From a virus (taxonomy: Duplodnaviria > Heunggongvirae > Uroviricota > Caudoviricetes), in IMG/VR virus record IMGVR_UViG_2579778993_000003: a stretch of 24,908 nucleotides of DNA; one strand, given 5' to 3'. The position numbers were made by a program, and so were the translations under genes. This document shows positions 1 to 19,626 of the stretch, piece by piece (the stretch's first letter is position 1; each line of letters begins with the position of its first letter). The notes under the pieces are model-generated. The model was given only the letters and a program-made list of their open reading frames with translations, searched no databases and was not told the DNA's origin.

Positions 1-721
1 CTGGCGTCAGTTGTTACGGGAAGGAATCAGGGTGGCCAGATGTACAGTGGCGCGCCTCATGGCGGTTATGGGACTTGCCGGTGTTCTCCGGGGTAAAAAG
101 GTCCGCACTACCGTCAGCCGGAAAACCGTTGCCACAGGTGACCGCGTAAACCGTCAGTTCGTGGCAGAACGACCTGACCAGCTGTGGGTGGCTGATTTTA
201 CTTACGTCAGCACATGGCAGGGCTTCGTCTATGTGGCGTTTATCATTGATGTGTTTGCCGGATACATCGTGGGGTGGCGGGTCTCATCGTCTATGGAAAC
301 GACATTCGTGCTGGATGCGCTGGAGCAGGCGTTGTGGGCCCGTCGTCCGTCTGGCACCATCCATCACAGCGATAAAGGCTCTCAGTATGTGTCACTGGCC
401 TATACGGAGCGACTAAAAGAAGCCGGATTACTGGCATCAACAGGGAGTACAGGCGACTCGTATGACAACGCGATGGCTGAGAGCATCAATGGTCTTTACA
501 AAGCGGAGGTAATACACCGTAAGAGCTGGAAAAACCGTGCAGAAGTGGAACTGGCCACACTAACGTGGGTGGACTGGTATAACAATCGACGATTGCTGGG
601 AAGGCTGGGCCATACTCCTCCGGCAGAAGCAGAAAAAGCTTATTATGCTTCCATCGGAAACGATGATCTGGCAGCCTGAGTTCACAGATAAAACACTCTC
701 CAGGAAACCCGGGGCGGTTCA
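1..721 (+). mobile_element. IS3-family insertion sequence, right-hand part (element continues upstream of the window); right terminus at 721
   Basis: Transposase OrfB occupies 2-679. Sequence 678-721 (gagttcacagataaaacactctccaggaaacccggggcggttca) is the reverse complement of a TGAACCGCCCCGGG... terminal inverted repeat that I recall for IS629/IS3411-type IS3-family elements. The left end is outside the window, so length and target-site duplication cannot be checked. Confidence 0.7.
2..679 (+). CDS. IS3-family transposase OrfB (DDE integrase catalytic domain), 5'-partial at window edge
   Basis: The track ORF 11..679 begins at a TTG, and the frame is open back to position 2, so the true N-terminus lies upstream. 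The translation carries IS3-family OrfB hallmarks (WVADFTYV, HSDKGSQY, GDSYDNAMAESINGLYKAE). Stop TGA at 677-679, immediately followed by the terminal repeat. Confidence 0.85.
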   Translation, partial: WRQLLREGIRVARCTVARLMAVMGLAGVLRGKKVRTTVSRKTVATGDRVNRQFVAERPDQLWVADFTYVSTWQGFVYVAFIIDVFAGYIVGWRVSSSMETTFVLDALEQALWARRPSGTIHHSDKGSQYVSLAYTERLKEAGLLASTGSTGDSYDNAMAESINGLYKAEVIHRKSWKNRAEVELATLTWVDWYNNRRLLGRLGHTPPAEAEKAYYASIGNDDLAA

Positions 722-1577: not shown

Positions 1578-1850
1578 ATGGACAATAACACCATTTCTCT
1601 ACAGGAGTTGCTCGACAGCATTTCCAGGCTTCGGGAAGACGTGAATACCCTTACCGTCGCCTTCTCATATCTGGCATTCTCAATTCCAAGGGAACAGATG
1701 CAATCAACGCTGGCATCAATCCAGTTTGAATCATGCAATCCCAAATGGTCTCAGGAACAACAAGACTCTTTCAGGCGGCTTGCTGTATTACTGGATGAAA
1801 AATATGCTGGTAAAATTACCATTTCGGCGGACTCTTCAGAGAACCCGTAA
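1578..1850 (+). CDS. Hypothetical 90-aa protein encoded opposite to the lysis genes (possible moron)
   Basis: ATG at 1578 preceded by GAGG with a 7-nt spacer. It sits in the unusually long 343-bp gap between the 114-aa gene and the endolysin start, and its 3' end overlaps the convergent 114-aa gene by about 35 bp. No recognisable motif. Confidence 0.35.
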   Translation: MDNNTISLQELLDSISRLREDVNTLTVAFSYLAFSIPREQMQSTLASIQFESCNPKWSQEQQDSFRRLAVLLDEKYAGKITISADSSENP

Positions 1851-2160
1851 TTATTCCCGGTAGTTTTCCTCTGTAGGTTATCAACACATCCTGCGCCTCT
1901 AAAATTACGGGGCGCTTTTCCGGCGACTGCTCATCCCCTTCACATAACCCGGCAGCAACATCCAGGAAGACCTGTCTGATGCTCCTTCTGGCTGCTGCCT
2001 CATAAAACTCCAGCGCGGCACCTTCAACACGGTCCAGCGAGATGTCCAGGTCAAAAATTTCACCGTCAAAGCGTTTTTTGTCCCGTAACGCTAAAGTTAC
2101 CGTAACTTTATTCTCAAAATTGCGGATCCCTTTCACAATCAGTTCATAGTTTTGAGTCAT
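1816..2160 (-). CDS. Hypothetical 114-aa protein between holin and endolysin
   Basis: ATG at 2158-2160 is preceded by GGGAGAG, 4 bp after the holin stop, so it appears translationally linked within the lysis cassette. No motif recognised. Confidence 0.5.
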   Translation of the reverse strand: MTQNYELIVKGIRNFENKVTVTLALRDKKRFDGEIFDLDISLDRVEGAALEFYEAAARRSIRQVFLDVAAGLCEGDEQSPEKRPVILEAQDVLITYRGKLPGIITGSLKSPPKW

Positions 2161-2164
2161 TGAA

Positions 2165-2380
2165 TTACTCTCCCCGTGCAGCCTTACGACGGTCCTCTCT
2201 GATTTTGAAATACAGGTTAGTCAGATATGTCAGCAGCCCAAACAGCAGACTCCCCAGCACGCCTATTGCCGCCCACTGAGACGGGGAAACCCTGTCCAGC
2301 AACTGCAGGAACCAGTAGCCCGTTCCCACCGCTGACGTGGTGTATGACACACCTGTTGTGATTTTTTCCATCTGGTACAT
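2165..2380 (-). CDS. Class II holin / pinholin (phage 21 S-like), 71 aa
   Basis: The track ORF is 97 aa, but the convincing start is the ATG at 2378-2380, preceded by GGGAGACGGGGT. The product [71 protein letters not shown] closely resembles the phage 21 S pinholin as I recall it (two TMDs, charged C-tail). A second in-frame ATG three codons later could give a dual-start holin/antiholin pair. Confidence 0.8.
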
Positions 2381-2530
2381 ACCCCGTCTCCCGTTATCCG
2401 GAAGCTGACAACAATAAAAAAAGCCACCAGTTAAGTACTGATGGCTCTGATAACTCATGCAGGCATCTCAGACGACCCACTGACACTACCGGTGAGTTTA
2501 ACGATACCTTCCATTTGACTGGCTCACTTT

Positions 2531-4387
2531 TTATGATGATGCTGGTGCATTTATCTCCAGCACCAGACTTTCTATCTCAACGCCATACGCTGCATTTTTG
2601 GTAATATCCGTCAGCGTCAGCGCATTCAGCCCCAGTGTCAGACTGTCTTTTATGACCTGGAATGCCGGGCCAGCCACTCCATTCAGTTTCGGAGTAACCG
2701 TGGCACTGCCGGCGGTGAACACCAGCTCCAGCGTCTGCCAGTCGTTACTGTAATTCCCGAACTCGCCCAACTTTGTGTTTCCTGCTTTCCTGTGATGCAT
2801 CAGATTCAGTTTGCCGTCTGTGGTCTGGGTGAAGAACGACATCAGGAACGGGTTACCAGTCCCGGTCATCGCCACGACGTCAGGTAACGCTACATCGGTA
2901 TACAGATAAATTCCCAGACCGAACTGGTTGTTGGTCAGTGCGCCTGACAGTCGAAACTTACAGCTCAGTCTGCCACCCCGTGTCAGCAGGGAGACTGCGT
3001 CATCCACCGGATGCATCAGGGACCAGGTTTTATTGCTCTGCTTGGTAACCTTAAACACACCATCTTCCAGCGCAACACTGCCGCCGGTGATGGTCCAGCC
3101 CTGCGCAGCAGCCTCTCCGGCTGTCGGCAGCAGGGAGACTGTACGAACGGATGTGTCACCATCAGACGGCCCCGATGGCGTGTCGCCGCCGGGCGAGGGT
3201 TTAATCTCCGGTGCGGTACCGCTGATGAAGGCGCTGGTTCGACCAACTGCGTTCAGAATAGCGGTTGCCAGGCGATCCGAAATAATGCCCCTGCGCGCCC
3301 ATGAACTGAAATGTGTCGGACGATTTGACGATACCCAATTACCATTACTACGGGATTGCGCGCCGTAATAACCTGCATCAGCAATATCCGGGTCTTCTGC
3401 CGGTAAGTTGGTGGGCGTGTTGTTGCCGTTACCGTCGGTCATGAACGGCACAAAGAAAACGTTGTCGCTCTCCCTGTTTTTGTACGCGCCGTAGACGGAG
3501 TCATACTGTGTGCCGTATGTGTTTTTCCAGTAATACGTCGTGTCGCCACAAATCCACGGTACAACTGCAGCACTGCCGCCATGGCACTGCGCCGCCAGCC
3601 CGGCAAGGTCAGCACGGAACTGCTGTACCATTGCAAGAAATGCTGCTGGCTGCTGGGCGTAACTGGCATTCGTCATATCGAATTCCCCCTGCATCCAGCA
3701 TATCGCCAGCAAAACGTTTTTCGGGTTTTTCTGCAATGCTGCCTTCGTGCGGAAAAGCAGATCCTGATATAATGGTTTACCCACACCCCAGCGTGCCGAA
3801 TCCTGGCTGGCCCCCGTGTCCGCACTGAATGTCCCCTCCGCGCCCTGGGTGAATGCCGAACCACCACGACAGCATGGTACCAGCAGGATCCCCGCATTAT
3901 TAGGGATATACGGAAGCAGTTTTTTGGCAATATGTAAGCCCTGTCCGACACAGCCGTACTGCCCTTTGCTCAGGTCAGCCCGGGGATGGTTAATCGTACT
4001 CATATCCTGAACATCATGCAGACAATGGTCAGCAGGAATGATGTCGTTAAATACGCATACTTCACCACCGGGAGTCACTGTGTTACGACGGGCCAGTTGC
4101 TTAATGCGCGGATGGGGCGCATCGTATGAATCCGGAAGCGGAAGCCCTTCACCGTAAGCCATGGCATTGGACTGCCCGGCCAGTACGATGACGTAGTACC
4201 ACTCCGGCTCAGTTGCACCACTGACGACCACATCACCTTCTGCTGCAATCGCCTGCATCAGGGTATAAGGGGTTATGGCCACCGGACTACCAAACGGCTG
4301 CCAGCCCTCTTTCAGTTTATGTGTCAGCTTTTCCGCAAGATCTGACGGCGACGCCGCCCTGACAACATCATAGTGTTTAAATGCCAT
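2531..4387 (-). CDS. Prophage sialate O-acetylesterase-like protein (NanS-p-like; SGNH/SASA hydrolase with extra N- and C-terminal domains), 618 aa
   Basis: Contains the esterase motif LAGQSNAMAYGEG (GQSN catalytic serine block) after an N-terminal ~60-aa domain (MAFKHYDVVRAASPSDLAEKL...), plus a long C-terminal beta-rich region. It sits between the tRNA/stx slot and the holin, the position of NanS-p genes in Stx-type prophages. Confidence 0.7.
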   Translation of the reverse strand: MAFKHYDVVRAASPSDLAEKLTHKLKEGWQPFGSPVAITPYTLMQAIAAEGDVVVSGATEPEWYYVIVLAGQSNAMAYGEGLPLPDSYDAPHPRIKQLARRNTVTPGGEVCVFNDIIPADHCLHDVQDMSTINHPRADLSKGQYGCVGQGLHIAKKLLPYIPNNAGILLVPCCRGGSAFTQGAEGTFSADTGASQDSARWGVGKPLYQDLLFRTKAALQKNPKNVLLAICWMQGEFDMTNASYAQQPAAFLAMVQQFRADLAGLAAQCHGGSAAVVPWICGDTTYYWKNTYGTQYDSVYGAYKNRESDNVFFVPFMTDGNGNNTPTNLPAEDPDIADAGYYGAQSRSNGNWVSSNRPTHFSSWARRGIISDRLATAILNAVGRTSAFISGTAPEIKPSPGGDTPSGPSDGDTSVRTVSLLPTAGEAAAQGWTITGGSVALEDGVFKVTKQSNKTWSLMHPVDDAVSLLTRGGRLSCKFRLSGALTNNQFGLGIYLYTDVALPDVVAMTGTGNPFLMSFFTQTTDGKLNLMHHRKAGNTKLGEFGNYSNDWQTLELVFTAGSATVTPKLNGVAGPAFQVIKDSLTLGLNALTLTDITKNAAYGVEIESLVLEINAPASS

Positions 4388-4580
4388 GAATCCTCCCGGC
4401 CGGGATAATATTGTGAGTAAAATGAGGAGCGGGCTGAAGTCCGGAAGTTACAGGACAATGGCAGAAGAGAGACAACAGCCCGCAATACGAAAAAGGCCGC
4501 GCTATTGCGCAGAGTGATTACTGTCGGATATTATTCGCCAGCTGAAATATTACTTCACGTTTTATTGTTTATTCCTTGCC

Positions 4581-4609
4581 GCCCGCGTCTCCCAGCGCGG
4601 GCTTTTTTT
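4581..4609 (+). terminator. Plus-strand intrinsic terminator
   Basis: Stem gcccgcg (4581-4587) pairs with cgcgggc (4596-4602) around an 8-nt loop, followed by T7 (4603-4609). The T-tract is only on the plus strand, implying a plus-strand transcript ends here, antisense to the late operon. Confidence 0.55.
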
Positions 4610-4616
4610 GCCCACA

Positions 4617-4850
4617 AGAAAACCCCTCCGGAGAGGGGCTAAAGCCGCGTATCTGTATCATCATGCACATGGTGCCGGGTGCCTCCCGGTGAGTTCAGCC
4701 CGGTGCCACTAAACCCGCGTCATTCTCGTTTTGATAATCAGAGATTATACCGTCACCAGTCGCCCCTCCGCTCAGGGGGATTCACCATGCGAAATTTTTT
4801 TAACAAATGCCCAGTCTGACAGGCAACTGTCAACTTACTGAATTGTGAGC
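4617..4850. repeat. Direct repeat unit A (~230 bp), degenerate copy of unit B, rich in palindromic hairpins
   Basis: Shares ordered conserved blocks with 5105-5318: aaaa(c/g)ccctccggagaggggct, gcatggtgccgggtgcctcccggtga, cccctccgc.cagggggattcaccatgc, ttttaacaaa and cagtcaac...ctgaattgtgag. The first block is a perfect 6-bp hairpin (CCCCTC cgga GAGGGG, 4623-4638) preceded by an A-run, so it is a minus-strand terminator. Confidence 0.6.
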
Positions 4851-4875
4851 AACATAGCATTTAACGGGGAACCTG

Positions 4876-4903
4876 TTTTCTGCAGTAAAAAGGCCCACCG
4901 GAG
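4876..4903 (-). terminator. Minus-strand intrinsic terminator between the two repeat units
   Basis: Hairpin GGCCCA (4882-4887) / TGGGCC (4898-4903) around a 10-nt loop, with a plus-strand A-run at 4877-4881 giving a T-tract on the minus-strand transcript. Confidence 0.5.
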
Positions 4904-5104
4904 CGGATGGGCCTGGAAGGATAGCGGTCATGTGATGCCGGTTTCCCGGTAACTCAGCACCGGTATCTGAGTCAACGTTTTCTCTACTGGGTCATTTCCG
5001 ATACGCCCTGCCTGCTGACAGGCTTTCATCACATCTGAAAATATAGCACCCTGACTGATACTGTAGTACCTAAGGTTCCAGAAACTGTGATGTATCCGGC
5101 ACAG

Positions 5105-5318
5105 AAAAGCCCCTCCGGAGAGGGGCTGGAGAGTGGCGCTATGTGCCATTGCATGGTGCCGGGTGCCTCCCGGTGAATTCAGTACCAGCACCTGAATCCG
5201 CGATTATCCCATATACCTACTCGCTGATTGCCCCTCCGCACAGGGGGATTCACCATGCCAGTTTCTTTTAACAAACTCCCCGCAAACCAGACAACAGTCA
5301 ACCGCCTGAATTGTGAGA
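5105..5318. repeat. Direct repeat unit B (~215 bp), degenerate copy of unit A
   Basis: Same conserved blocks as unit A, including the CCCCTC cgga GAGGGG hairpin (5110-5125) and the 8-bp inverted pair gcatggtg / caccatgc bracketing a variable ~110-nt core. Confidence 0.6.
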
Positions 5319-5323
5319 CATTT

Positions 5324-5347
5324 AAAAAAAAGCCCGCAAAAGCGAGC
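5324..5347 (-). terminator. Minus-strand terminator-like hairpin directly after the tRNA cluster
   Basis: Plus-strand A8 (5324-5331) then gcccgc aaaa gcgagc (5332-5347); on the minus strand this is an imperfect 6-bp hairpin followed by T8. Confidence 0.45.
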
Positions 5348-5362
5348 CAGTGAAAATAAGTG

Positions 5363-5439
5363 TGGCGCGTTGTACTGGATTCGAACCAGTGACCGATTGC
5401 TTAGAAGGCAATTGCTCTGTCCGGCTGAGCTAACAACGC
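5363..5439 (-). tRNA. tRNA-Arg (anticodon UCU)
   Basis: Manual cloverleaf on the minus strand: acceptor GCGTTGT/ACAACGC, D-stem GCTC/GAGC, anticodon stem ATTGC/GCAAT with loop CTTCTAA, T-arm ACTGG-TTCGAAT-CCAGT, discriminator G and encoded CCA. All stems perfect; 77 nt. Confidence 0.9.
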
Positions 5440-5452
5440 AGGATACAGATAA

Positions 5453-5529
5453 TGGACCGCCTTCGGGGACCCGAACTCCGCGCAACCAGCTTCGAAGGCT
5501 GGCGCTCTTTCCTGATGAGCTAATGGCGG
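5453..5529 (-). tRNA. Putative tRNA-Arg (anticodon UCG), slightly degenerate
   Basis: Cloverleaf fits with D-stem GCTC/GAGC, anticodon stem CCAGC/GCTGG with loop CTTCGAA, and encoded CCA. There is one mismatch in the acceptor stem (A-A), one in the T-stem (A-C), and an atypical T-loop TTCGGGT, so it may be a diverged or pseudo tRNA. Confidence 0.55.
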
Positions 5530-5536
5530 TATGTGA

Positions 5537-5612
5537 TGGTGGCCCTTGCTGGATTTGAACCAGCGACCTGGCGATTATGAGTCGCTCGCTCTCACCACTG
5601 AGCTAAAGGGCC
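5537..5612 (-). tRNA. tRNA with CAU anticodon (Met by anticodon; resembles the Ile2/lysidine-type ileX/ileZ class)
   Basis: Minus-strand sequence GGCCCTTTAGCTCAGTGGTGAGAGCGAGCGACTCATAATCGCCAGGTCGCTGGTTCAAATCCAGCAAGGGCCACCA folds as a 76-nt cloverleaf with one A-C mismatch in the anticodon stem. It closely resembles E. coli ileX as I recall it. Confidence 0.85.
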
Positions 5613-5661
5613 GGGAGCAGAATAATAATGGTGCGTAATTAATTCTGCAATCTCATCCGTT

Positions 5662-6711
5662 TCAAACGATTAAATCCTGAACTTCCCTGACTGTCTGCTC
5701 AAAACGTCCGGTCTCCAGCTCAACACCAATCGCACGACGCCCCAGTGCCATCGCCGCTTTTACCGTTGAACCCGACCCCATGAAAAAATCCGCAACCAGA
5801 TCACCAGGACGGCTACTTGCGCTGATTATCTGCTGCAGCATTTCTGCCGGTTTTTCGCACGGATGTTTCCCGGGATAGAACTGCACCGGTTTATGCGTCC
5901 ACACATCGGTATACGGCACCTGCACCGTCACGCCAAAATACCGCCGCAGATGTTTATATTCACTCAGCAGCTCCGCATACTGCCGGTTCAGTGAGGTATA
6001 CGTATCCACCAGCTGGTGGTGGAGCTTTTCCAGTTCACCACGCCGATGCTTCTCTTCTGCCACCCGGGCAAACAGCGCCTGTAATTTCAGATAATCGCTT
6101 TCATTCGGTAGCTGCCACTGACTGGCACTGAACCAGTGCGACACCATGTTTTTCTTTCCTGTGGCATCTGCAATCTGTTTTGCCGTTATCCCCAAGGCCG
6201 CGCGCGCATCACGAAAGTAAGAAATCAGCGGGGCCATCACATGCTGTTTCAGTGCACTGCCCTTCGCCGCATACCCGGCATCTTTCGGACGATACGGCCC
6301 CTGATAATGTTCCGCGAACAGAATGCGCTCTGTGGCGGGGAAATACGCCCGCAGGCTTTCCTTGTTGCACCCGTTCCAGCGTCCGGACGGCTTCGCCCAG
6401 ATAATATGGTTCAGCACACTGAAGCGTTCACGCATCATGATTTCGATATCAGATGCCAGGCGATGACCACAGAACAGGTAAAGACTTCCGGCAGGTTTCA
6501 GCACCCGCCAGAACTGCGCCAGACACTGGTCCAGCCATTTCAGGTAATCATCGTCGCCCTTCCACTGGTTATCCCAGCCCTCAGGCTTCACTTTAAAGTA
6601 CGGCGGGTCCGTGACTATCAGGTCAACAGAATTTTCGGGTAACGACCGGATAAATTCCAGGCAGTCGGCGTTGATTAACTCACAACTGGATATTTTTACA
6701 GTATTAAGCAT
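5662..6711 (-). CDS. Orphan DNA methyltransferase (amino-MTase, N6-adenine or N4-cytosine; motif order DPPY then FxGxG)
   Basis: 349 aa with catalytic motif IVTDPPYF near the N-terminus and the AdoMet-binding motif FFMGSGST near the C-terminus. No restriction endonuclease gene is adjacent. ATG at 6709-6711. Confidence 0.85.
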   Translation of the reverse strand: MLNTVKISSCELINADCLEFIRSLPENSVDLIVTDPPYFKVKPEGWDNQWKGDDDYLKWLDQCLAQFWRVLKPAGSLYLFCGHRLASDIEIMMRERFSVLNHIIWAKPSGRWNGCNKESLRAYFPATERILFAEHYQGPYRPKDAGYAAKGSALKQHVMAPLISYFRDARAALGITAKQIADATGKKNMVSHWFSASQWQLPNESDYLKLQALFARVAEEKHRRGELEKLHHQLVDTYTSLNRQYAELLSEYKHLRRYFGVTVQVPYTDVWTHKPVQFYPGKHPCEKPAEMLQQIISASSRPGDLVADFFMGSGSTVKAAMALGRRAIGVELETGRFEQTVREVQDLIV

Positions 6712-6804
6712 GGATCATTAAGCCTGTCTCTGATAGGCTCATTCTGCTTTTGCGCAAAGCAGTGGGCCTGAGGTTTGCTTGTGAACCCAACGCATGAGCA
6801 GATG

Positions 6805-6833
6805 GCTGGTGGGTGCCCCTAACACCCACCAGC
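6805..6833 (-). other. Perfect 11-bp stem-loop without U-tract in the 5' region upstream of the methyltransferase gene
   Basis: gctggtgggtg (6805-6815), loop cccctaa, cacccaccagc (6823-6833). No T-run on either side, so it is not a canonical terminator; possibly an RNA processing or stability element or a protein-binding site. Confidence 0.4.
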
Positions 6834-6845
6834 CGCCCATTTACC

Positions 6846-6875
6846 ACAAATAAAAAAGCCTTCACTGCGGAAGGC
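6846..6875 (-). terminator. Minus-strand intrinsic terminator (second terminator downstream of Q)
   Basis: Stem GCCTTC (6858-6863) / GAAGGC (6870-6875) with loop actgcg, preceded on the plus strand by A6 (6852-6857), giving a hairpin plus T-tract on the minus-strand RNA. Confidence 0.5.
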
Positions 6876-7059
6876 GTCTGTAACAACCGAACTGATAGTC
6901 TGCCAGACCCGCCATAACCAGCTGAGTCAGTATTAACTGGCAGCGTTCGCGTGAAAGGTAAGTATTCTGCGCAATCTCCCCGACTGTCGCCGGTTCGGTG
7001 ACGCTTAATTCATTAAACACCACTCTGGCGGTTTCTGTCATATCCTGCTGTTTTAGCAT
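6862..7059 (-). CDS. Hypothetical small protein (about 65 aa) between the Q-proximal terminator and the methyltransferase gene
   Basis: Internal ATG at 7057-7059 preceded by AAGGGA; the track ORF extends to 7146 but lacks support upstream. No motif recognised; low confidence that it is translated. Confidence 0.3.
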   Translation of the reverse strand: MLKQQDMTETARVVFNELSVTEPATVGEIAQNTYLSRERCQLILTQLVMAGLADYQFGCYRRLPQ

Positions 7060-7181
7060 GTCTTTTTCCCTTTTCCGGTTAACGTGACACACCAATAACT
7101 CTTGTCGAAAAAGCCAGCAAGCTGAAAGACAGGTATTCACCGCCACCAGCGCGTTTACTGTACTGACGCGATTTCAGTCAT

Positions 7182-7203
7182 AAAAAACCCGCCAGGCGGC
7201 GGG
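7182..7203 (-). terminator. tR'-like intrinsic terminator about 80 bp downstream of the Q gene
   Basis: On the minus-strand RNA: stem CCCGCC, loop GCCU, stem GGCGGG, then UUUUUU (plus-strand A-run 7182-7187, stems 7188-7193 and 7198-7203). Confidence 0.6.
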
Positions 7204-7252
7204 GTGTAAAAAATCTTCTAACGTCAGGCATAAAACGCCTATCGTTAGAGCA

Positions 7253-7280
7253 AATTTACCACAGATTCGGGAAAAATCAA
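7253..7280 (-). promoter_or_regulatory. Candidate late promoter (pR'-like) with expected Q-utilisation region
   Basis: On the minus strand, TTGATT (-35, complement of 7275-7280), a 16-nt spacer, then TAAATT (-10, complement of 7253-7258). It lies just downstream of the Q stop (7286-7288) and about 45-60 nt upstream of the terminator at 7182-7203, mirroring the lambda pR'-6S RNA-tR' layout. Confidence 0.4.
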
Positions 7281-7285
7281 CAACA

Positions 7286-8107
7286 CTATCGCGTTACCCT
7301 CTTTAACTGCCGCTCCGCCCATGCCTCTTCAATGTCAAACCGAACCACCAACGTATCGTAAAAGCGTTTCACTGATTTTTTCCACGTATCAAGCGTGATA
7401 GCACTCGTCACTTTGCGTATGGCATTAAATGCCTCCGTTGATGGTAGTCTTTCACAGCCACGACCACCACAACGCTGGCAGTCTCTGATAACAGGCATAC
7501 CACGTTTTACCGACTCTTCACGATGAATGGCAACACCACGCCCACGGCAGTCTTTACAGGCAGTGGAAATCTCCCCCTTCCCTTTACATTCAGGACAAGA
7601 AACTTTCACCACCTCCCGAATTTTTTTCCATTCTTCCCAGTAAGACGGATACACACCTTTCGTACACTTTGCCCATACTGGCGGCTTGCCATCCGGATAC
7701 TGAACCTTGTTTGTAAAAACTTCGCCTTCAATAAATTTTTCCCCTCGGCAACAGGGGCACTGCTTTTTACTCGCTGCGCTGCGGGCATAATCCTCAAAAG
7801 CGTACGAAGCCATAATGCGCATCACTACCGGTTTTATTTCTGCCGGAAGTTTTCTCAACGCCGCCACACGATCGCACCGACTGAGTGCATAATCTGCCAG
7901 TAATTCTGTTGCCCGCGCCCTGTCATTCATACTGATGCCCATTTTCCCCAGGAACGCAGAAAACCCCATCTCAGCCCGATTCTGTGTCATGCCCTGCGCG
8001 GCCATCACATCAGTGATACTCAGCGCATCTTTCGACGTTGAGGCCGATGCATCAGTCAGGCCGGGGGATTTTGGGGAGTAGTATTTCGGTAAATCTTCCA
8101 GTTTCAT
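7286..8107 (-). CDS. Putative late-gene antiterminator Q (Cys-rich, zinc-finger type), 273 aa
   Basis: Directly downstream of rusA with a 4-bp ATGA overlap, and followed by a promoter plus terminator pair. Contains repeated CxxC motifs (CPCCRGEK, CPECKGKGE, CKDCRGRG, CQRCGGRGCE). Family assignment rests on synteny and motifs. Confidence 0.6.
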   Translation of the reverse strand: MKLEDLPKYYSPKSPGLTDASASTSKDALSITDVMAAQGMTQNRAEMGFSAFLGKMGISMNDRARATELLADYALSRCDRVAALRKLPAEIKPVVMRIMASYAFEDYARSAASKKQCPCCRGEKFIEGEVFTNKVQYPDGKPPVWAKCTKGVYPSYWEEWKKIREVVKVSCPECKGKGEISTACKDCRGRGVAIHREESVKRGMPVIRDCQRCGGRGCERLPSTEAFNAIRKVTSAITLDTWKKSVKRFYDTLVVRFDIEEAWAERQLKRVTR

Positions 8108-8484
8108 TTTTTGACCTGCTCTTCATGCATTATGGGGTAAATCTTCACCCCCAGACGTCCACCAGATACTGGCTGACCACGAACGATATTGATTTCATCA
8201 AACTGCTCATCGTCCATTAGCAACCCCGCATGCGTCAGCGCATCCAGCGGCGCTTTCAGAATATTGTCCAGATCACGGCGGCGCTTATCCGGTGGTTCTG
8301 CAATAATTTTTATTGCCAACCTTCCGGACAGGCTTAATTTCAGCCGCTGCTGGCGAACAATAAGCGCCACTGCCCGGCGATAACGCTCCCCGGCTTTTGA
8401 TACAAAATATGTGCTGCCACGACGACGCCAGTAAGTGTTCACCGTTGGCGGGTAAGGCAAAACAAATTCTATGCGTTCAGTCAT
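8104..8484 (-). CDS. rusA: RusA-family Holliday junction resolvase
   Basis: 126 aa; the segments LPYPPTVNTYWRRRG and DKRRRDLDNILKAPLDALTHAGLLMDDEQ match the RusA fold and catalytic Asp cluster. Typical position in a lambdoid nin region just upstream of Q. Confidence 0.85.
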   Translation of the reverse strand: MTERIEFVLPYPPTVNTYWRRRGSTYFVSKAGERYRRAVALIVRQQRLKLSLSGRLAIKIIAEPPDKRRRDLDNILKAPLDALTHAGLLMDDEQFDEINIVRGQPVSGGRLGVKIYPIMHEEQVKK

Positions 8485-19099: not shown

Positions 19100-19460
19100 T
19101 CTCCACGGGTCAGGTGGAGTGCGTGCGCCGGACACGGGTGAACATCCGGCACTGACAGTTTACTGAAAGGATATGTCCCTGAAAAGTCAGGGCATAACGC
19201 GAAAGCGCACGGCGAAATTGGTCTCTCTGTACGGTGTCGTTAAATTTAGTTCGACCGTGCGCTTCCGGTTGTGGCAATCCGCGAAATGGTGCGGCGGTAA
19301 GTATGGCGGGGGTATTCCTTCCCCCGTTGAGGACACCGGGTTGTCAGGTTGACCATACGCTTAAGTGACAACCCCGCTGCAACGCCCTCTGTTATCAATT
19401 TTCTGGTGACGTTTGGCGGTATCAGTTTTACTCCGTGACTGCTCTGCCGCCCTTTTTAAA
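19100..19460. other. GC-rich, hairpin-dense non-coding region (candidate structured RNA or DNA site)
   Basis: No convincing ORF. Several perfect stems: GCCGGA/TCCGGC nested inside GTCAG/CTGAC (19111-19156), CCCTGA aaag TCAGGG (~19177-19194), GCGCACGG...CCGTGCGC enclosing ~45 nt (~19205-19262), CGGGGG tattcctt CCCCCG (~19307-19326), and GGGTTGTCA-19 nt-TGACAACCC (~19338-19374). Confidence 0.3.
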
Positions 19461-19626
19461 GTGAATTTTGTGATGTGGTGAATGCGGCTGAGCGCACGCG
19501 GAACAGTTAAAACCAAAAACAGTGTTATGGGTGGATTCTCTGTATCCGGCGTTAATTGTTAACTGGTTAACGTCACCTGGAGGCACCAGGCACCGCATCA
19601 CAAAATTCATTGTTGAGGACGCGATA

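Follow-up and report, generated by a model that had tools for sequence, protein, structure and literature searches.

A stx-negative lambdoid prophage late region with a probable array of four small RNA genes between its tRNA genes and nanS-p

The DNA studied here is a stretch of 24,908 nucleotides from a virus of the Caudoviricetes (IMG/VR record IMGVR_UViG_2579778993_000003), and its whole length is referred to as the window. The minus strand carries, in this order, the gene for the late antiterminator Q, a candidate late promoter and terminator (PR'/tR'), a DNA methyltransferase gene, genes for tRNA-Ile2(CAU), tRNA-Arg(UCG) and tRNA-Arg(UCU), an interval of 975 bp, and the genes for a NanS-p esterase, a holin and an endolysin (Table 1). 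A preliminary description had proposed this order from Q to the endolysin on the basis of the sequence, and Pfam, ARAGORN and a terminator scan bore it out.

Table 1. Features of the late regulatory and lysis region, with their positions in the window and the evidence for each
Feature	Position	Strand	Evidence
Q late antiterminator, 273 aa, with DnaJ-like zinc-finger stretch	7286..8107	-	Pfam PF03589 Antiterm, E = 9e-51
Candidate late promoter PR', TTGATT-16 nt-TAAATT	7253..7280	-	Sequence reading; directly 3' of the Q stop codon
tR'-like intrinsic terminator, CCCGCCGCCTGGCGGG then T run	7188..7203	-	Terminator scan
Conserved small ORF, 94 aa (RefSeq call: 65 aa)	6862..7146	-	phrog_331, E = 1e-42
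N6/N4 DNA methyltransferase	5662..6711	-	Pfam PF01555, E = 4e-43
tRNA(CAU), ileZ type (tRNA-Ile2)	5537..5612	-	ARAGORN; Rfam tRNA, 72.5 bits
tRNA-Arg(UCG), argN type	5453..5529	-	ARAGORN; 70/77 identical to 933W argN
tRNA-Arg(UCU), argO type	5363..5439	-	ARAGORN; 76/77 identical to 933W argO
Terminator 3' of argO	5331..5348	-	Terminator scan
STnc100 unit A	5097..5324	-	Rfam RF02076, 136.3 bits, E = 3e-30; match 5287-5097
Unit A terminator	5127-5108	-	
Diverged STnc100-like unit M	4849..5096	-	RF02076, 30.1 bits, below the gathering score of 47; covariance-model match 5058-4885
STnc100 unit B	4610..4848	-	RF02076, 161 bits, E = 1e-36; match 4819-4610
Unit B terminator	4640-4621	-	
Convergent sRNA gene, antisense to the nanS-p 5' leader	4428..4609	+	98.4% identity to an EPEC sRNA
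Terminator-like hairpin, nanS-p leader	4497..4512	-	Terminator scan
NanS-p-type sialate O-acetylesterase, 618 aa	2531..4387	-	Pfam DUF1737, SASA, C-terminal DUF6645
Class II (P21-type) holin	2165..2458	-	Pfam PF04971, E = 2e-32; 93-94% identical to Stx2-phage holins
YdfR/DUF1327 protein	1816..2160	-	Pfam PF07041; RefSeq 'YdfR family protein'
Endolysin (phage lysozyme)	939..1472	-	Pfam PF00959; 91% identical to 933W R

The Q allele (quuQ) is common to the window and the Stx2a phage Stx2_EH1910. The putative PR' was read from the sequence, and its position agrees with that of the pR' annotated in 933W (AF125520). A consensus promoter scan made no call there, and it found no minus-strand promoter in 4300-7400. 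In the same region the terminator scan found 13 terminator-like hairpins, compared with 3.8 +/- 2.2 in shuffled sequences. Five late-strand hairpins of this kind lie between argO and nanS-p, three of which close the three STnc100-type units described below. The small ORF downstream of tR' is annotated in RefSeq and occupies the same position in Stx2a phages, and the methyltransferase gene lies inside blocks 92.9-93.9% identical to such phages.

The first tRNA gene is named Met by ARAGORN, a name that rests on the anticodon alone, and tRNA-Ile in RefSeq. It is identical to 933W ileZ at 76 of 76 positions, and its sequence identifies it as tRNA-Ile2, in which the CAU anticodon would be lysidine-modified, rather than a Met tRNA. 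The hairpin 3' of argO recurs in 933W, where it is annotated as 'terminator upstream of the stx genes'. At the other end of the interval, the domain set of the predicted esterase and its position upstream of the holin gene identify it as NanS-p-type. Its gene shares 69-77% DNA identity with 933W L0105 and the yjhS of Stx2 phages. The hairpin in its leader is kept in 933W, KH16-043, phi296 and the Stx1c phage.

Comparisons with Stx phages strongly support the earlier suggestion that the prophage is a stx-negative relative of them. The window contains the backbone of such phages, namely Q, PR'/tR' and ileZ-argN-argO followed by nanS-p, holin and endolysin genes. Positions 5325-8475, from rusA through the third tRNA gene, are 92.9% identical over 3155 bp to Stx2_EH1910 (LC567834.1). 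Positions 5325-7202 are 93.9% identical over 1.88 kb to the Stx2a phage KH16-043, whose homology begins at the tR'-like hairpin. Stx2_EH1910 has the same order of ydfU, rusA, a 273-aa Q, a small ORF, methylase, tRNA(CAU), two tRNA-Arg, a variable slot, STnc100, esterase, holin and endolysin. It differs in carrying stx2AB (with iraM further on) in the slot where the window has units A and M, in having iraM at the position of the convergent sRNA, and in an esterase gene that is ~77% identical. 933W likewise shares ileZ-argN-argO, the post-argO terminator, STnc100, a convergent short RNA, L0105/nanS-p, S and R with the window. However, its Q is another allele, the tRNA genes follow Q without an intervening methylase gene, stx2AB fills the slot, there is just one STnc100, and AsxR takes the place of an EcOnc08/21/42-type RNA; its order is stx2B, STnc100, convergent AsxR, L0105.

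The window does not have the stxA and stxB genes that mark a Stx-converting phage between the tRNA genes and nanS-p. When stx2AB of KH16-043 and stx1AB of the Stx1c phage were searched against the whole window and the slot alone by blastn (word size 7) and tblastn, only shared flanks were matched, as expected from the preliminary description of an interval free of stx genes. The best tblastn match for stx in the whole window had an E-value of 0.64. The best slot-only match, to Stx1A (E = 0.017, 22.7 bits), lies in STnc100 unit B but on the wrong strand.

Junction alignments place the homology breakpoints with Stx phages at 5324/5325, just past the T run of the argO terminator, and at 4848/4849. 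Stx2 phages have a stx2AB insert of 1339 bp, bounded on one side by the argO terminator and on the other by the leader of the STnc100 equivalent to unit B. Window positions 3254-4848 match a block of KH16-043 that ends at 5465 of its locus (L002), and the stx2 insert therefore corresponds to 5466-6804 of that locus. At the stx2AB position the window has 476 bp, made up of units A and M. Relatives break at these same two points and differ in what lies between them, supporting the proposal that cargo is exchanged here. The phage phi296 has a single, chimeric STnc100 unit and nothing in the slot. The Stx1c phage has stx1AB followed by two units, and PhiR5_2 and 640R1 have the same A-M-B array as the window. 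Other relatives carry iraM, or a toxin-antitoxin and TciA/TerB module, near the slot. A moron site 3' of PR' with convergent sRNAs has been described (Tree et al., 2014; PMC4104026), and the slot is this known moron site of lambdoid late operons. Its copy number and content probably shift through homologous recombination between the STnc100 repeats and the conserved flanks. Mosaic patterns, such as the chimeric unit of phi296, suggest that recombination between units may have occurred.

The interval had been described as holding only repeats and terminators, which proved to be incorrect. The repeats are tandem STnc100 genes, accompanied by unit M and an sRNA gene similar to one of EPEC. Units A and B match RF02076 over its full length (model positions 1-206) and exceed its gathering score of 47 bits by 89 and 114 bits, respectively, which places both in the family. 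In each of the three units a leader of the form TTAAAT..TCACAATTCAG is accompanied by a multi-helix core, which a long-range helix closes; the central segment is hypervariable, and the unit has a terminator of its own. In unit A the conserved leader reads TTAAATG..TCACAATTCAG, and a possible promoter, TTGTCT-18-TAAAAG, with 8/12 consensus matches, can also be read. The candidate promoters of A, M and B are sub-consensus readings with at most 8/12 matches, on which the promoter scan made no call. The fold of unit A reproduces the RF02076 family structure, and units A and B each fold alone into the STnc100 architecture. RNAalifold analysis of 12 units from seven loci gave a closing helix, three internal hairpins and a terminator, with four covarying pairs. 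This consensus recovers the Rfam architecture independently and provides covariation support for the structure. Single-sequence folding z-scores were weak (-1.2 to -1.7) and not significant alone; the structural assignment is based instead on the covariance-model scores and the alignment.

Unit B corresponds to the STnc100 copy just 3' of stx2B in Stx2 phages and aligns to the STnc100 of 933W, KH16-043 and EH1910. STnc100 has been placed 75 nt 3' of stx2 (PMC12370729). Units A and B share with STnc100 its architecture, its covariation, and its position beside the esterase gene and 3' of the moron site. The window differs from the usual arrangement in having three tandem units instead of one. 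The central variable segment of A differs from that of B, and both differ from the 933W copy. A related STnc100 core that lacks a terminator sits within the dicF-dicB transcript. Published data indicate that members of this family are expressed, homologues in EDL933 and Sakai being known as discrete Hfq-associated RNAs. EcOnc27/sRNA103, which overlaps STnc100, binds Hfq (PMC12711010), and in EDL933 transcriptome reads were obtained for all 11 listed STnc100 copies, one of which was visible on a Northern blot (PMC5331693). A common origin has been proposed for STnc100 and PasD, both of which adjoin the esterase gene (Zhu, Shabalina and Storz, 2026; bioRxiv 10.64898/2026.05.13.724894). PasD1 and PasD2 of EPEC share the core motifs GCAUGGUGAAUCC..GGAGGGGC .. 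GGGAGGC.CCAUGC and the site upstream of the esterase gene with the window units. We considered whether A and B are themselves PasD and rejected it, because blastn aligns only 42 nt of A and 29 nt of B at ~80% identity. By sequence, A and B are canonical STnc100 rather than PasD.

Unit M aligns end to end with RF02076 (model positions 1-206, local E = 4e-5), and each of the main helices can form in it. Its score falls below the family threshold, and we treat it as a diverged STnc100 relative. The closing helix is AUGUGAUG/CAUCACAU and the terminator lies at 4914-4891. A hairpin is preserved through compensatory changes between its two alleles. Unit M is found in 673 of 5426 E. coli genomes, and it could be a decaying copy. 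It is unannotated.

The fourth RNA gene abuts the 3' end of unit B on the plus strand, at the position held by AsxR in 933W. It aligns over its whole length (182/182 nt, 98.4% identity) to E2348C_1409.E2348C_1408.IGR, an Hfq-associated EPEC sRNA detected by RIL-seq (Pearl Mizrahi et al., 2021; PMC8550237). A promoter-like site was found by the promoter scan at 4381-4409 on the plus strand, and a terminator at 4581-4602 is followed by a T run. The seed CCUUGCC at 4574-4580 complements the target motif GGCAAGG. The seed, the position and the orientation upstream of the esterase gene are as in the EPEC RNA (prophage PP6), whose EHEC homologues are EcOnc08/21/42, and the sequence places the predicted RNA in this group. 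In E2348/69, unlike the window, ISEc13 interrupts the adjoining STnc100 and there are two tRNA genes instead of three. No Rfam family match was found for 4428..4609. Like AsxR and AgvB, it is a short RNA that is convergent with and abuts STnc100 and is antisense to the late transcript, and the upstream motif TTGCGC, a candidate -35 element, is common to all of them. However, a search of the window with the covariance models of AsxR (RF02703) and AgvB (RF02702) gave no match at E <= 10, with the AsxR of 933W recovered at 88 bits as a positive control, and the body and terminator sequences differ. Membership in the AsxR/AgvB family was therefore rejected, and the putative sRNA is best described as an allele of the AsxR position.

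Together, these observations make it likely that the window represents the late regulatory and lysis region of a stx-negative lambdoid prophage of the Stx2-carrying type, in which the 975 bp between the tRNA genes and nanS-p form an array of four sRNA genes. Three tandem late-strand units of STnc100 type (A, the diverged M, and B) would be joined by a convergent plus-strand sRNA. By analogy with the homologues, each sRNA in the lysogen would be transcribed from its own weak sigma-70 promoter and end at its own terminator. The sRNAs would associate with Hfq and regulate host and accessory mRNAs in trans, and their terminators, with tR', may prevent expression of nanS-p and the lysis genes. Once the prophage is induced, Q-modified RNA polymerase from PR' would pass through all of the terminators.

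The STnc100-type units might instead work mainly in cis, either as a stack of terminator or insulator cassettes within the late operon or by supplying repeated homology for cargo exchange. Every unit ends in a strong intrinsic late-strand terminator, adding to the excess of hairpins in the region (13 versus 3.8 expected), and the unit leaders are the exact slot boundaries. Mosaic units such as that of phi296 and the terminator-less core inside the dicF-dicB transcript also fit such a role. Neither termination nor recombination, however, needs a covarying multi-helix core with a hypervariable centre, which is typical of base-pairing sRNAs. Homologues in EHEC and EPEC are Hfq-bound and build up as discrete RNAs. 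A mainly cis-acting array is unlikely. Cis and trans roles of the units are mutually compatible.

It was also suggested that the prophage is a toxin-loss derivative. In that case it would descend from a Stx2 phage such as Stx2_EH1910 by a recent deletion of stx2AB. The 92.9% identity to a Stx2a phage across rusA, Q, methylase and tRNAs, and breakpoints that coincide exactly with the ends of the stx2 insert, would fit this history. However, the search left no support for it, with no stx1 or stx2 remnant at the DNA or protein level and 476 bp of unrelated sequence at the stx position. The 248-bp M segment is present in five of 50,697 phage records, none named as a Stx-converting phage, so a simple deletion from a known Stx phage cannot yield the arrangement. 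The nanS-p side is just 69-77% identical to Stx phages, which indicates a mosaic region and not descent from a single phage. Of 5426 complete E. coli genomes, 318 contain the same 1275 bp, and the ExPEC strains S88, IHE3034 and UM146 belong to this set. We therefore regard toxin loss as very unlikely, although the sequence comparisons do not discriminate between gain and loss of stx as the direction of change at the slot.

A coding function for the interval, through the small ORFs that automatic annotation places there, for instance an 87-aa ORF at 4928-5191 on the minus strand, is highly improbable. Three of these ORFs have hits in PHROG families that lack an assigned function (phrog_23557, E = 7e-30; phrog_24488; phrog_27294), and phage records annotate 'hypothetical proteins' there. 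These families were probably built from ORF calls over the same sRNA DNA. The two alleles of the M ORF differ at 8, 10 and 9 sites over the three codon positions, with no third-position bias; 14 codons change the amino acid against five that leave it unchanged, and one allele has ATG where the other has ATA. The protein-coding reading of this ORF was rejected for its lack of codon-position bias and its non-conserved start codon. The small ORFs gave no significant Pfam match (the best, YmjE-like, had 14 bits and E = 0.052, below the cut-off), RefSeq shows just a pseudogene fragment, and on either strand they overlap high-scoring structured-RNA matches. Least probable of all is that the cargo slot is empty, its repeats and terminators being without function. 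Direct repeats and hairpins do occur and RefSeq has no functional annotation there, but the slot is filled with sRNA genes: the repeats match a curated RNA family over its full length and clear its threshold by 89 and 114 bits, and the remainder is 98.4% identical to an experimentally detected sRNA.

The sRNA array also invites a more speculative extension, which we consider doubtful. The tandem STnc100 leaders and cores might serve as portable homology that sets the slot edges, with recombination between sRNA copies of different prophages shuttling stx2AB and other morons into and out of the slot. Unit M might then be a third working paralogue that recognises new targets, and the dicF-dicB core would add a cis-embedded form to the family.

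The arrangement itself is ordinary and already known, having been sequenced in hundreds of genomes, and its main elements have been described before (Rfam STnc100; Tree et al., 2014; Pearl Mizrahi et al., 2021; Zhu et al., 2026). Its significance beyond annotation is small. Regulatory RNA genes crowd the stretch between the phage tRNA genes and nanS-p, a blank in genome annotation, and stx-free prophages of extraintestinal and commensal E. coli have the same late-operon backbone and the exact insertion point found in Stx2 phages. This is useful background for the movement of stx modules between prophages and for the annotation of sRNAs in prophages.

Judging from its sequence, the 975-bp slot between the argO-type tRNA gene and the nanS-p esterase gene is taken up by four sRNA genes with their terminators: three tandem STnc100-type units (A, M and B) on the late strand and one convergent sRNA on the plus strand. 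The preliminary description had treated this interval as a cargo slot with only repeats and terminators. With these genes located, the slot is occupied, and the 'repeats' are units A and B, which both exceed the gathering score of Rfam RF02076 (STnc100; 47 bits). RefSeq annotates none of the four sRNA genes in the slot, where its sole entry is a pseudogene fragment.

Features of the late region and of the dicF-dicB element
Feature	Position	Strand	Evidence
Antiterminator Q, 273 aa	7286-8107	minus	PF03589
Candidate PR', TTGATT-16-TAAATT	7280-7253	minus	Directly 3' of the Q stop codon; read by eye from sequence
Strong terminator hairpin	7203-7188	minus	Downstream of candidate PR'
Small ORF, conserved	6862-7146	minus	ORF listing
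N6/N4 DNA methylase	5662-6711	minus	ORF listing, Pfam
tRNA, anticodon CAU	5537-5612	minus	ARAGORN, Rfam
tRNA Arg-UCG	5453-5529	minus	ARAGORN, Rfam
tRNA Arg-UCU	5363-5439	minus	ARAGORN, Rfam
STnc100 unit A	5287-5097	minus (late strand)	RF02076 full-length, 136.3 bits
STnc100-like unit M	5058-4885	minus	RF02076 30.1 bits, sub-threshold, local E = 4e-5
STnc100 unit B	4819-4610	minus (late strand)	RF02076 full-length, 161 bits
Convergent sRNA	4428-4609	plus	98.4% identity to entire 182-nt EPEC RNA
Esterase, 618 aa, DUF1737 + SASA + DUF6645	2531-4387	minus	Pfam
Holin, P21-type	2165-2458	minus	Pfam
DUF1327/YdfR protein	1816-2160	minus	Pfam
Lysozyme	939-1472	minus	Pfam
STnc100 core, sub-threshold, terminator-less	19464-19604	plus	38.4 bits, model 21-154, local E = 3e-7

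Unit M lies within the 248 bp separating A and B. Its alignment spans the whole STnc100 model and every main helix is formed, with AUGUGAUG/CAUCACAU as the closing helix compared to CAUGGUG/CACCAUG in STnc100. The unit is present in 673 of 5426 complete E. coli genomes as two alleles, ~100% and 85.5% identical to the window, between which the first hairpin is preserved via one double and two single compatible changes. RNAalifold analysis of 12 STnc100 units from seven loci independently recovered the Rfam architecture (8-bp closing helix, three internal hairpins and terminator), with covariation in four pairs and a hypervariable central segment. An ORF over unit M is annotated in some phage records. 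We rejected it as a gene because the differences are distributed 8/10/9 by codon position with no third-position bias, non-synonymous codon changes exceed synonymous ones (14 vs 5), and the start codon is not conserved. Small ORFs over the sRNA genes at 4679-4819 (+), 4928-5191 (-) and 5228-5353 (+) match phrog_24488, phrog_23557 and phrog_27294, respectively. All three are families of unknown function, probably built from spurious ORF calls over STnc100-type phage DNA.

The plus-strand sRNA ends in a hairpin and T run (4581-4609) adjoining the unit B 3' end. The same position in the Stx2 phage 933W holds the anti-sRNA AsxR, convergent with STnc100; searches of the window element against AsxR and AgvB, relaxed to E = 10, found neither. 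Among the Hfq-associated sRNAs recorded by RIL-seq in EPEC E2348/69 (Pearl Mizrahi et al. 2021, supplement; PMC8550237) is 'E2348C_1409.E2348C_1408.IGR' (NC_011601 1444797-1444978, minus strand). It has EHEC homologues EcOnc08/21/42, and the locus there has the layout of the window: Q, tRNAs, STnc100, convergent sRNA, esterase and holin. The window sRNA keeps the CCUUGCC seed (4574-4580), complementary to the reported GGCAAGG target motif, and a promoter-like site on the plus strand (4381-4409) is consistent with its 5' end. The EPEC homologue was recovered in chimeras with tir and the leaders of cfa and dppA (PMC8550237). A TTGCGC motif at 4505-4534 (+) is conserved in 5/5 aligned loci, with TATTAT after it where the RNA is of the window type. 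This points to a second promoter inside the gene, which may give a short ~68-nt form of AsxR-like size.

The reported gene order from Q to the endolysin gene is real, since the gene set (ORF listing and Pfam), the tRNAs (ARAGORN and Rfam), a plausible promoter and a terminator hairpin all lie in the window. The TTGATT-16-TAAATT sequence is a plausible late promoter PR'. The CAU tRNA is identical to 933W ileZ (76/76), and the Arg-UCG and Arg-UCU tRNAs are identical to argN and argO at 70/77 and 76/77 positions. An IS3-family element occupies window 1-721 (transposase ORF 11-679, plus strand; element end ~721). The match to a prophage of strain Res13-Lact-PEA14-20, otherwise 98-99% identical, restarts at 722, ~217 bp downstream of the endolysin gene. 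From these two boundaries we infer that the remaining lysis cassette (Rz-type 'lysis protein') is displaced or lost in the window.

The synteny with Stx phages also holds. Among phages, the Stx2a-converting Stx2_EH1910 is closest over the whole region; it is 92.9% identical to window 5325-8475 over 3155 bp, covering rusA, Q, the small ORF, the methylase, three tRNAs and the argO terminator. Beyond this terminator it carries stx2A, stx2B, one STnc100, iraM and yjhS, a nanS-p counterpart. In the Stx2a phage KH16-043, the upstream block is 93.9% identical to the window and the downstream block (unit B and nanS-p) 73.5% identical. The outer mosaic boundaries are not alike among relatives: homology begins exactly at the tR' hairpin (7202/7203) in KH16-043, whose Q differs, and in Stx2_EH1910 extends to 8475, taking in rusA and a Q allele shared with the window. 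Stx2_EH1910, KH16-043 and 933W share two identical homology breaks relative to the window, immediately 3' of the argO terminator (5325/5324) and at the TCACAATTCAG leader of unit B (4848/4849). Between them the Stx2 phages have 1339 bp (stx2AB and short flanks), compared to 476 bp (units A and M) in the window.

Is the prophage a toxin-loss derivative, as had been proposed alongside an stx-negative relative? We consider a recent loss very unlikely, and no signs of recent toxin loss were found in the window. The stx2A/stx2B genes of an Stx2a phage locus and the stx1A/stx1B genes of an Stx1c phage locus, searched at the DNA (word size 7) and protein (tblastn) levels, matched the window only in shared flanks, with best whole-window tblastn E-values of 0.64 (Stx2) and 1.9 (Stx1). 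A slot-only search gave a single 29-aa match (22.7 bits, E = 0.017); we do not count it as a remnant, because it is antisense to the late operon and falls within an element also found downstream of intact stx in Stx phages. The slot therefore lacks stx genes, as first described, and the window lacks a remnant of them. In addition, the M segment, which in the window takes up part of the stx position, is found in only five phage records, none named Stx-converting, and on the esterase side the window and the Stx2 phages have different alleles. The exact 1275-bp sequence of the region occurs at ≥80% coverage in 318 of 5426 complete genomes, including ExPEC S88, IHE3034, UM146 and NU14 and the type strain ATCC 11775. 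On sequence grounds, the window prophage is consistent with a mosaic prophage from the same pool that is free of stx. The preliminary description is confirmed in part as an observation and supported in part as an interpretation.

Its proposal of a cargo-exchange site agrees with the relatives, among which stx2AB, stx1AB, iraM, toxin-antitoxin/TerB genes and STnc100 units occur at or near this position. PhiR5_2 and vB_EcoS-640R1 carry a window-like A-M-B array, and the Stx1c phage carries stx1AB followed by two STnc100 units. PPyecE_EH1910, without tRNA genes, has a toxin-antitoxin-like pair and a TciA/TerB-like gene (4128-5726 of its locus). Further cargo at this site is iraM, in Stx2_EH1910 (locus 3560-3883) and vB_EcoS-640R1 (locus 3507-3842); IraM is an anti-adaptor that stabilises RpoS. 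In E2348/69 prophage PP6, ISEc13 splits the single STnc100 (locus 1520-1600 and 3151-3296; profile 1-81 and 74-235, a short overlap). The stx-negative Traversvirus phi296 and TL-2011a have a single chimeric STnc100 immediately after the tRNAs. The phi296 unit (locus 5222-5465) has a unit A-like leader and 3' part and a central variable segment identical to unit B, suggesting recombination or gene conversion among STnc100 units. The slot is the moron site described downstream of PR' by Tree et al. (2014; PMC4104026), who found convergent sRNA genes in Sp5 and seven other Sakai prophages.

All main components of the region have been described previously, and its sequence is in hundreds of public genomes. 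Unit M and the STnc100 core near dicB have no entry in any library searched; both are minor. The core sits just upstream of the dicB start (19628) and directly 3' of DicF (19401-19452, plus strand; Rfam 76.7 bits), so that the dicF-dicB transcript seems to contain an STnc100-like fold.

The elements, their family membership, structure and positions were established in the window, and the working of the array proposed here is drawn from homologues. In the lysogen, the sRNAs are probably transcribed from their own promoters. From the sequence, TTGTCT-18-TAAAAG is the candidate for A and TTGCCT-18-TAAAAA that for B; for M, the candidate is a -10 element, TATATT. Each is positioned for initiation at the closing helix, which is also where the published 5' end of PasD2 lies. 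The sRNAs would end at their own terminators and work via Hfq. In EDL933, transcriptome reads were reported for 11/11 listed STnc100 copies, and a Northern blot verified one of them (PMC5331693). The Hfq-bound sRNA EcOnc27/sRNA103, which overlaps the copy downstream of stx2B, increased fimZ and espA transcript levels when overexpressed (PMC12711010). A scan of the late strand from PR' to nanS-p found at least seven terminator-like hairpins: tR', one at 6875-6858 and five from argO to nanS-p. Following the established lambdoid Q model, these hairpins would silence nanS-p and the lysis genes until they are read through by Q-modified polymerase.
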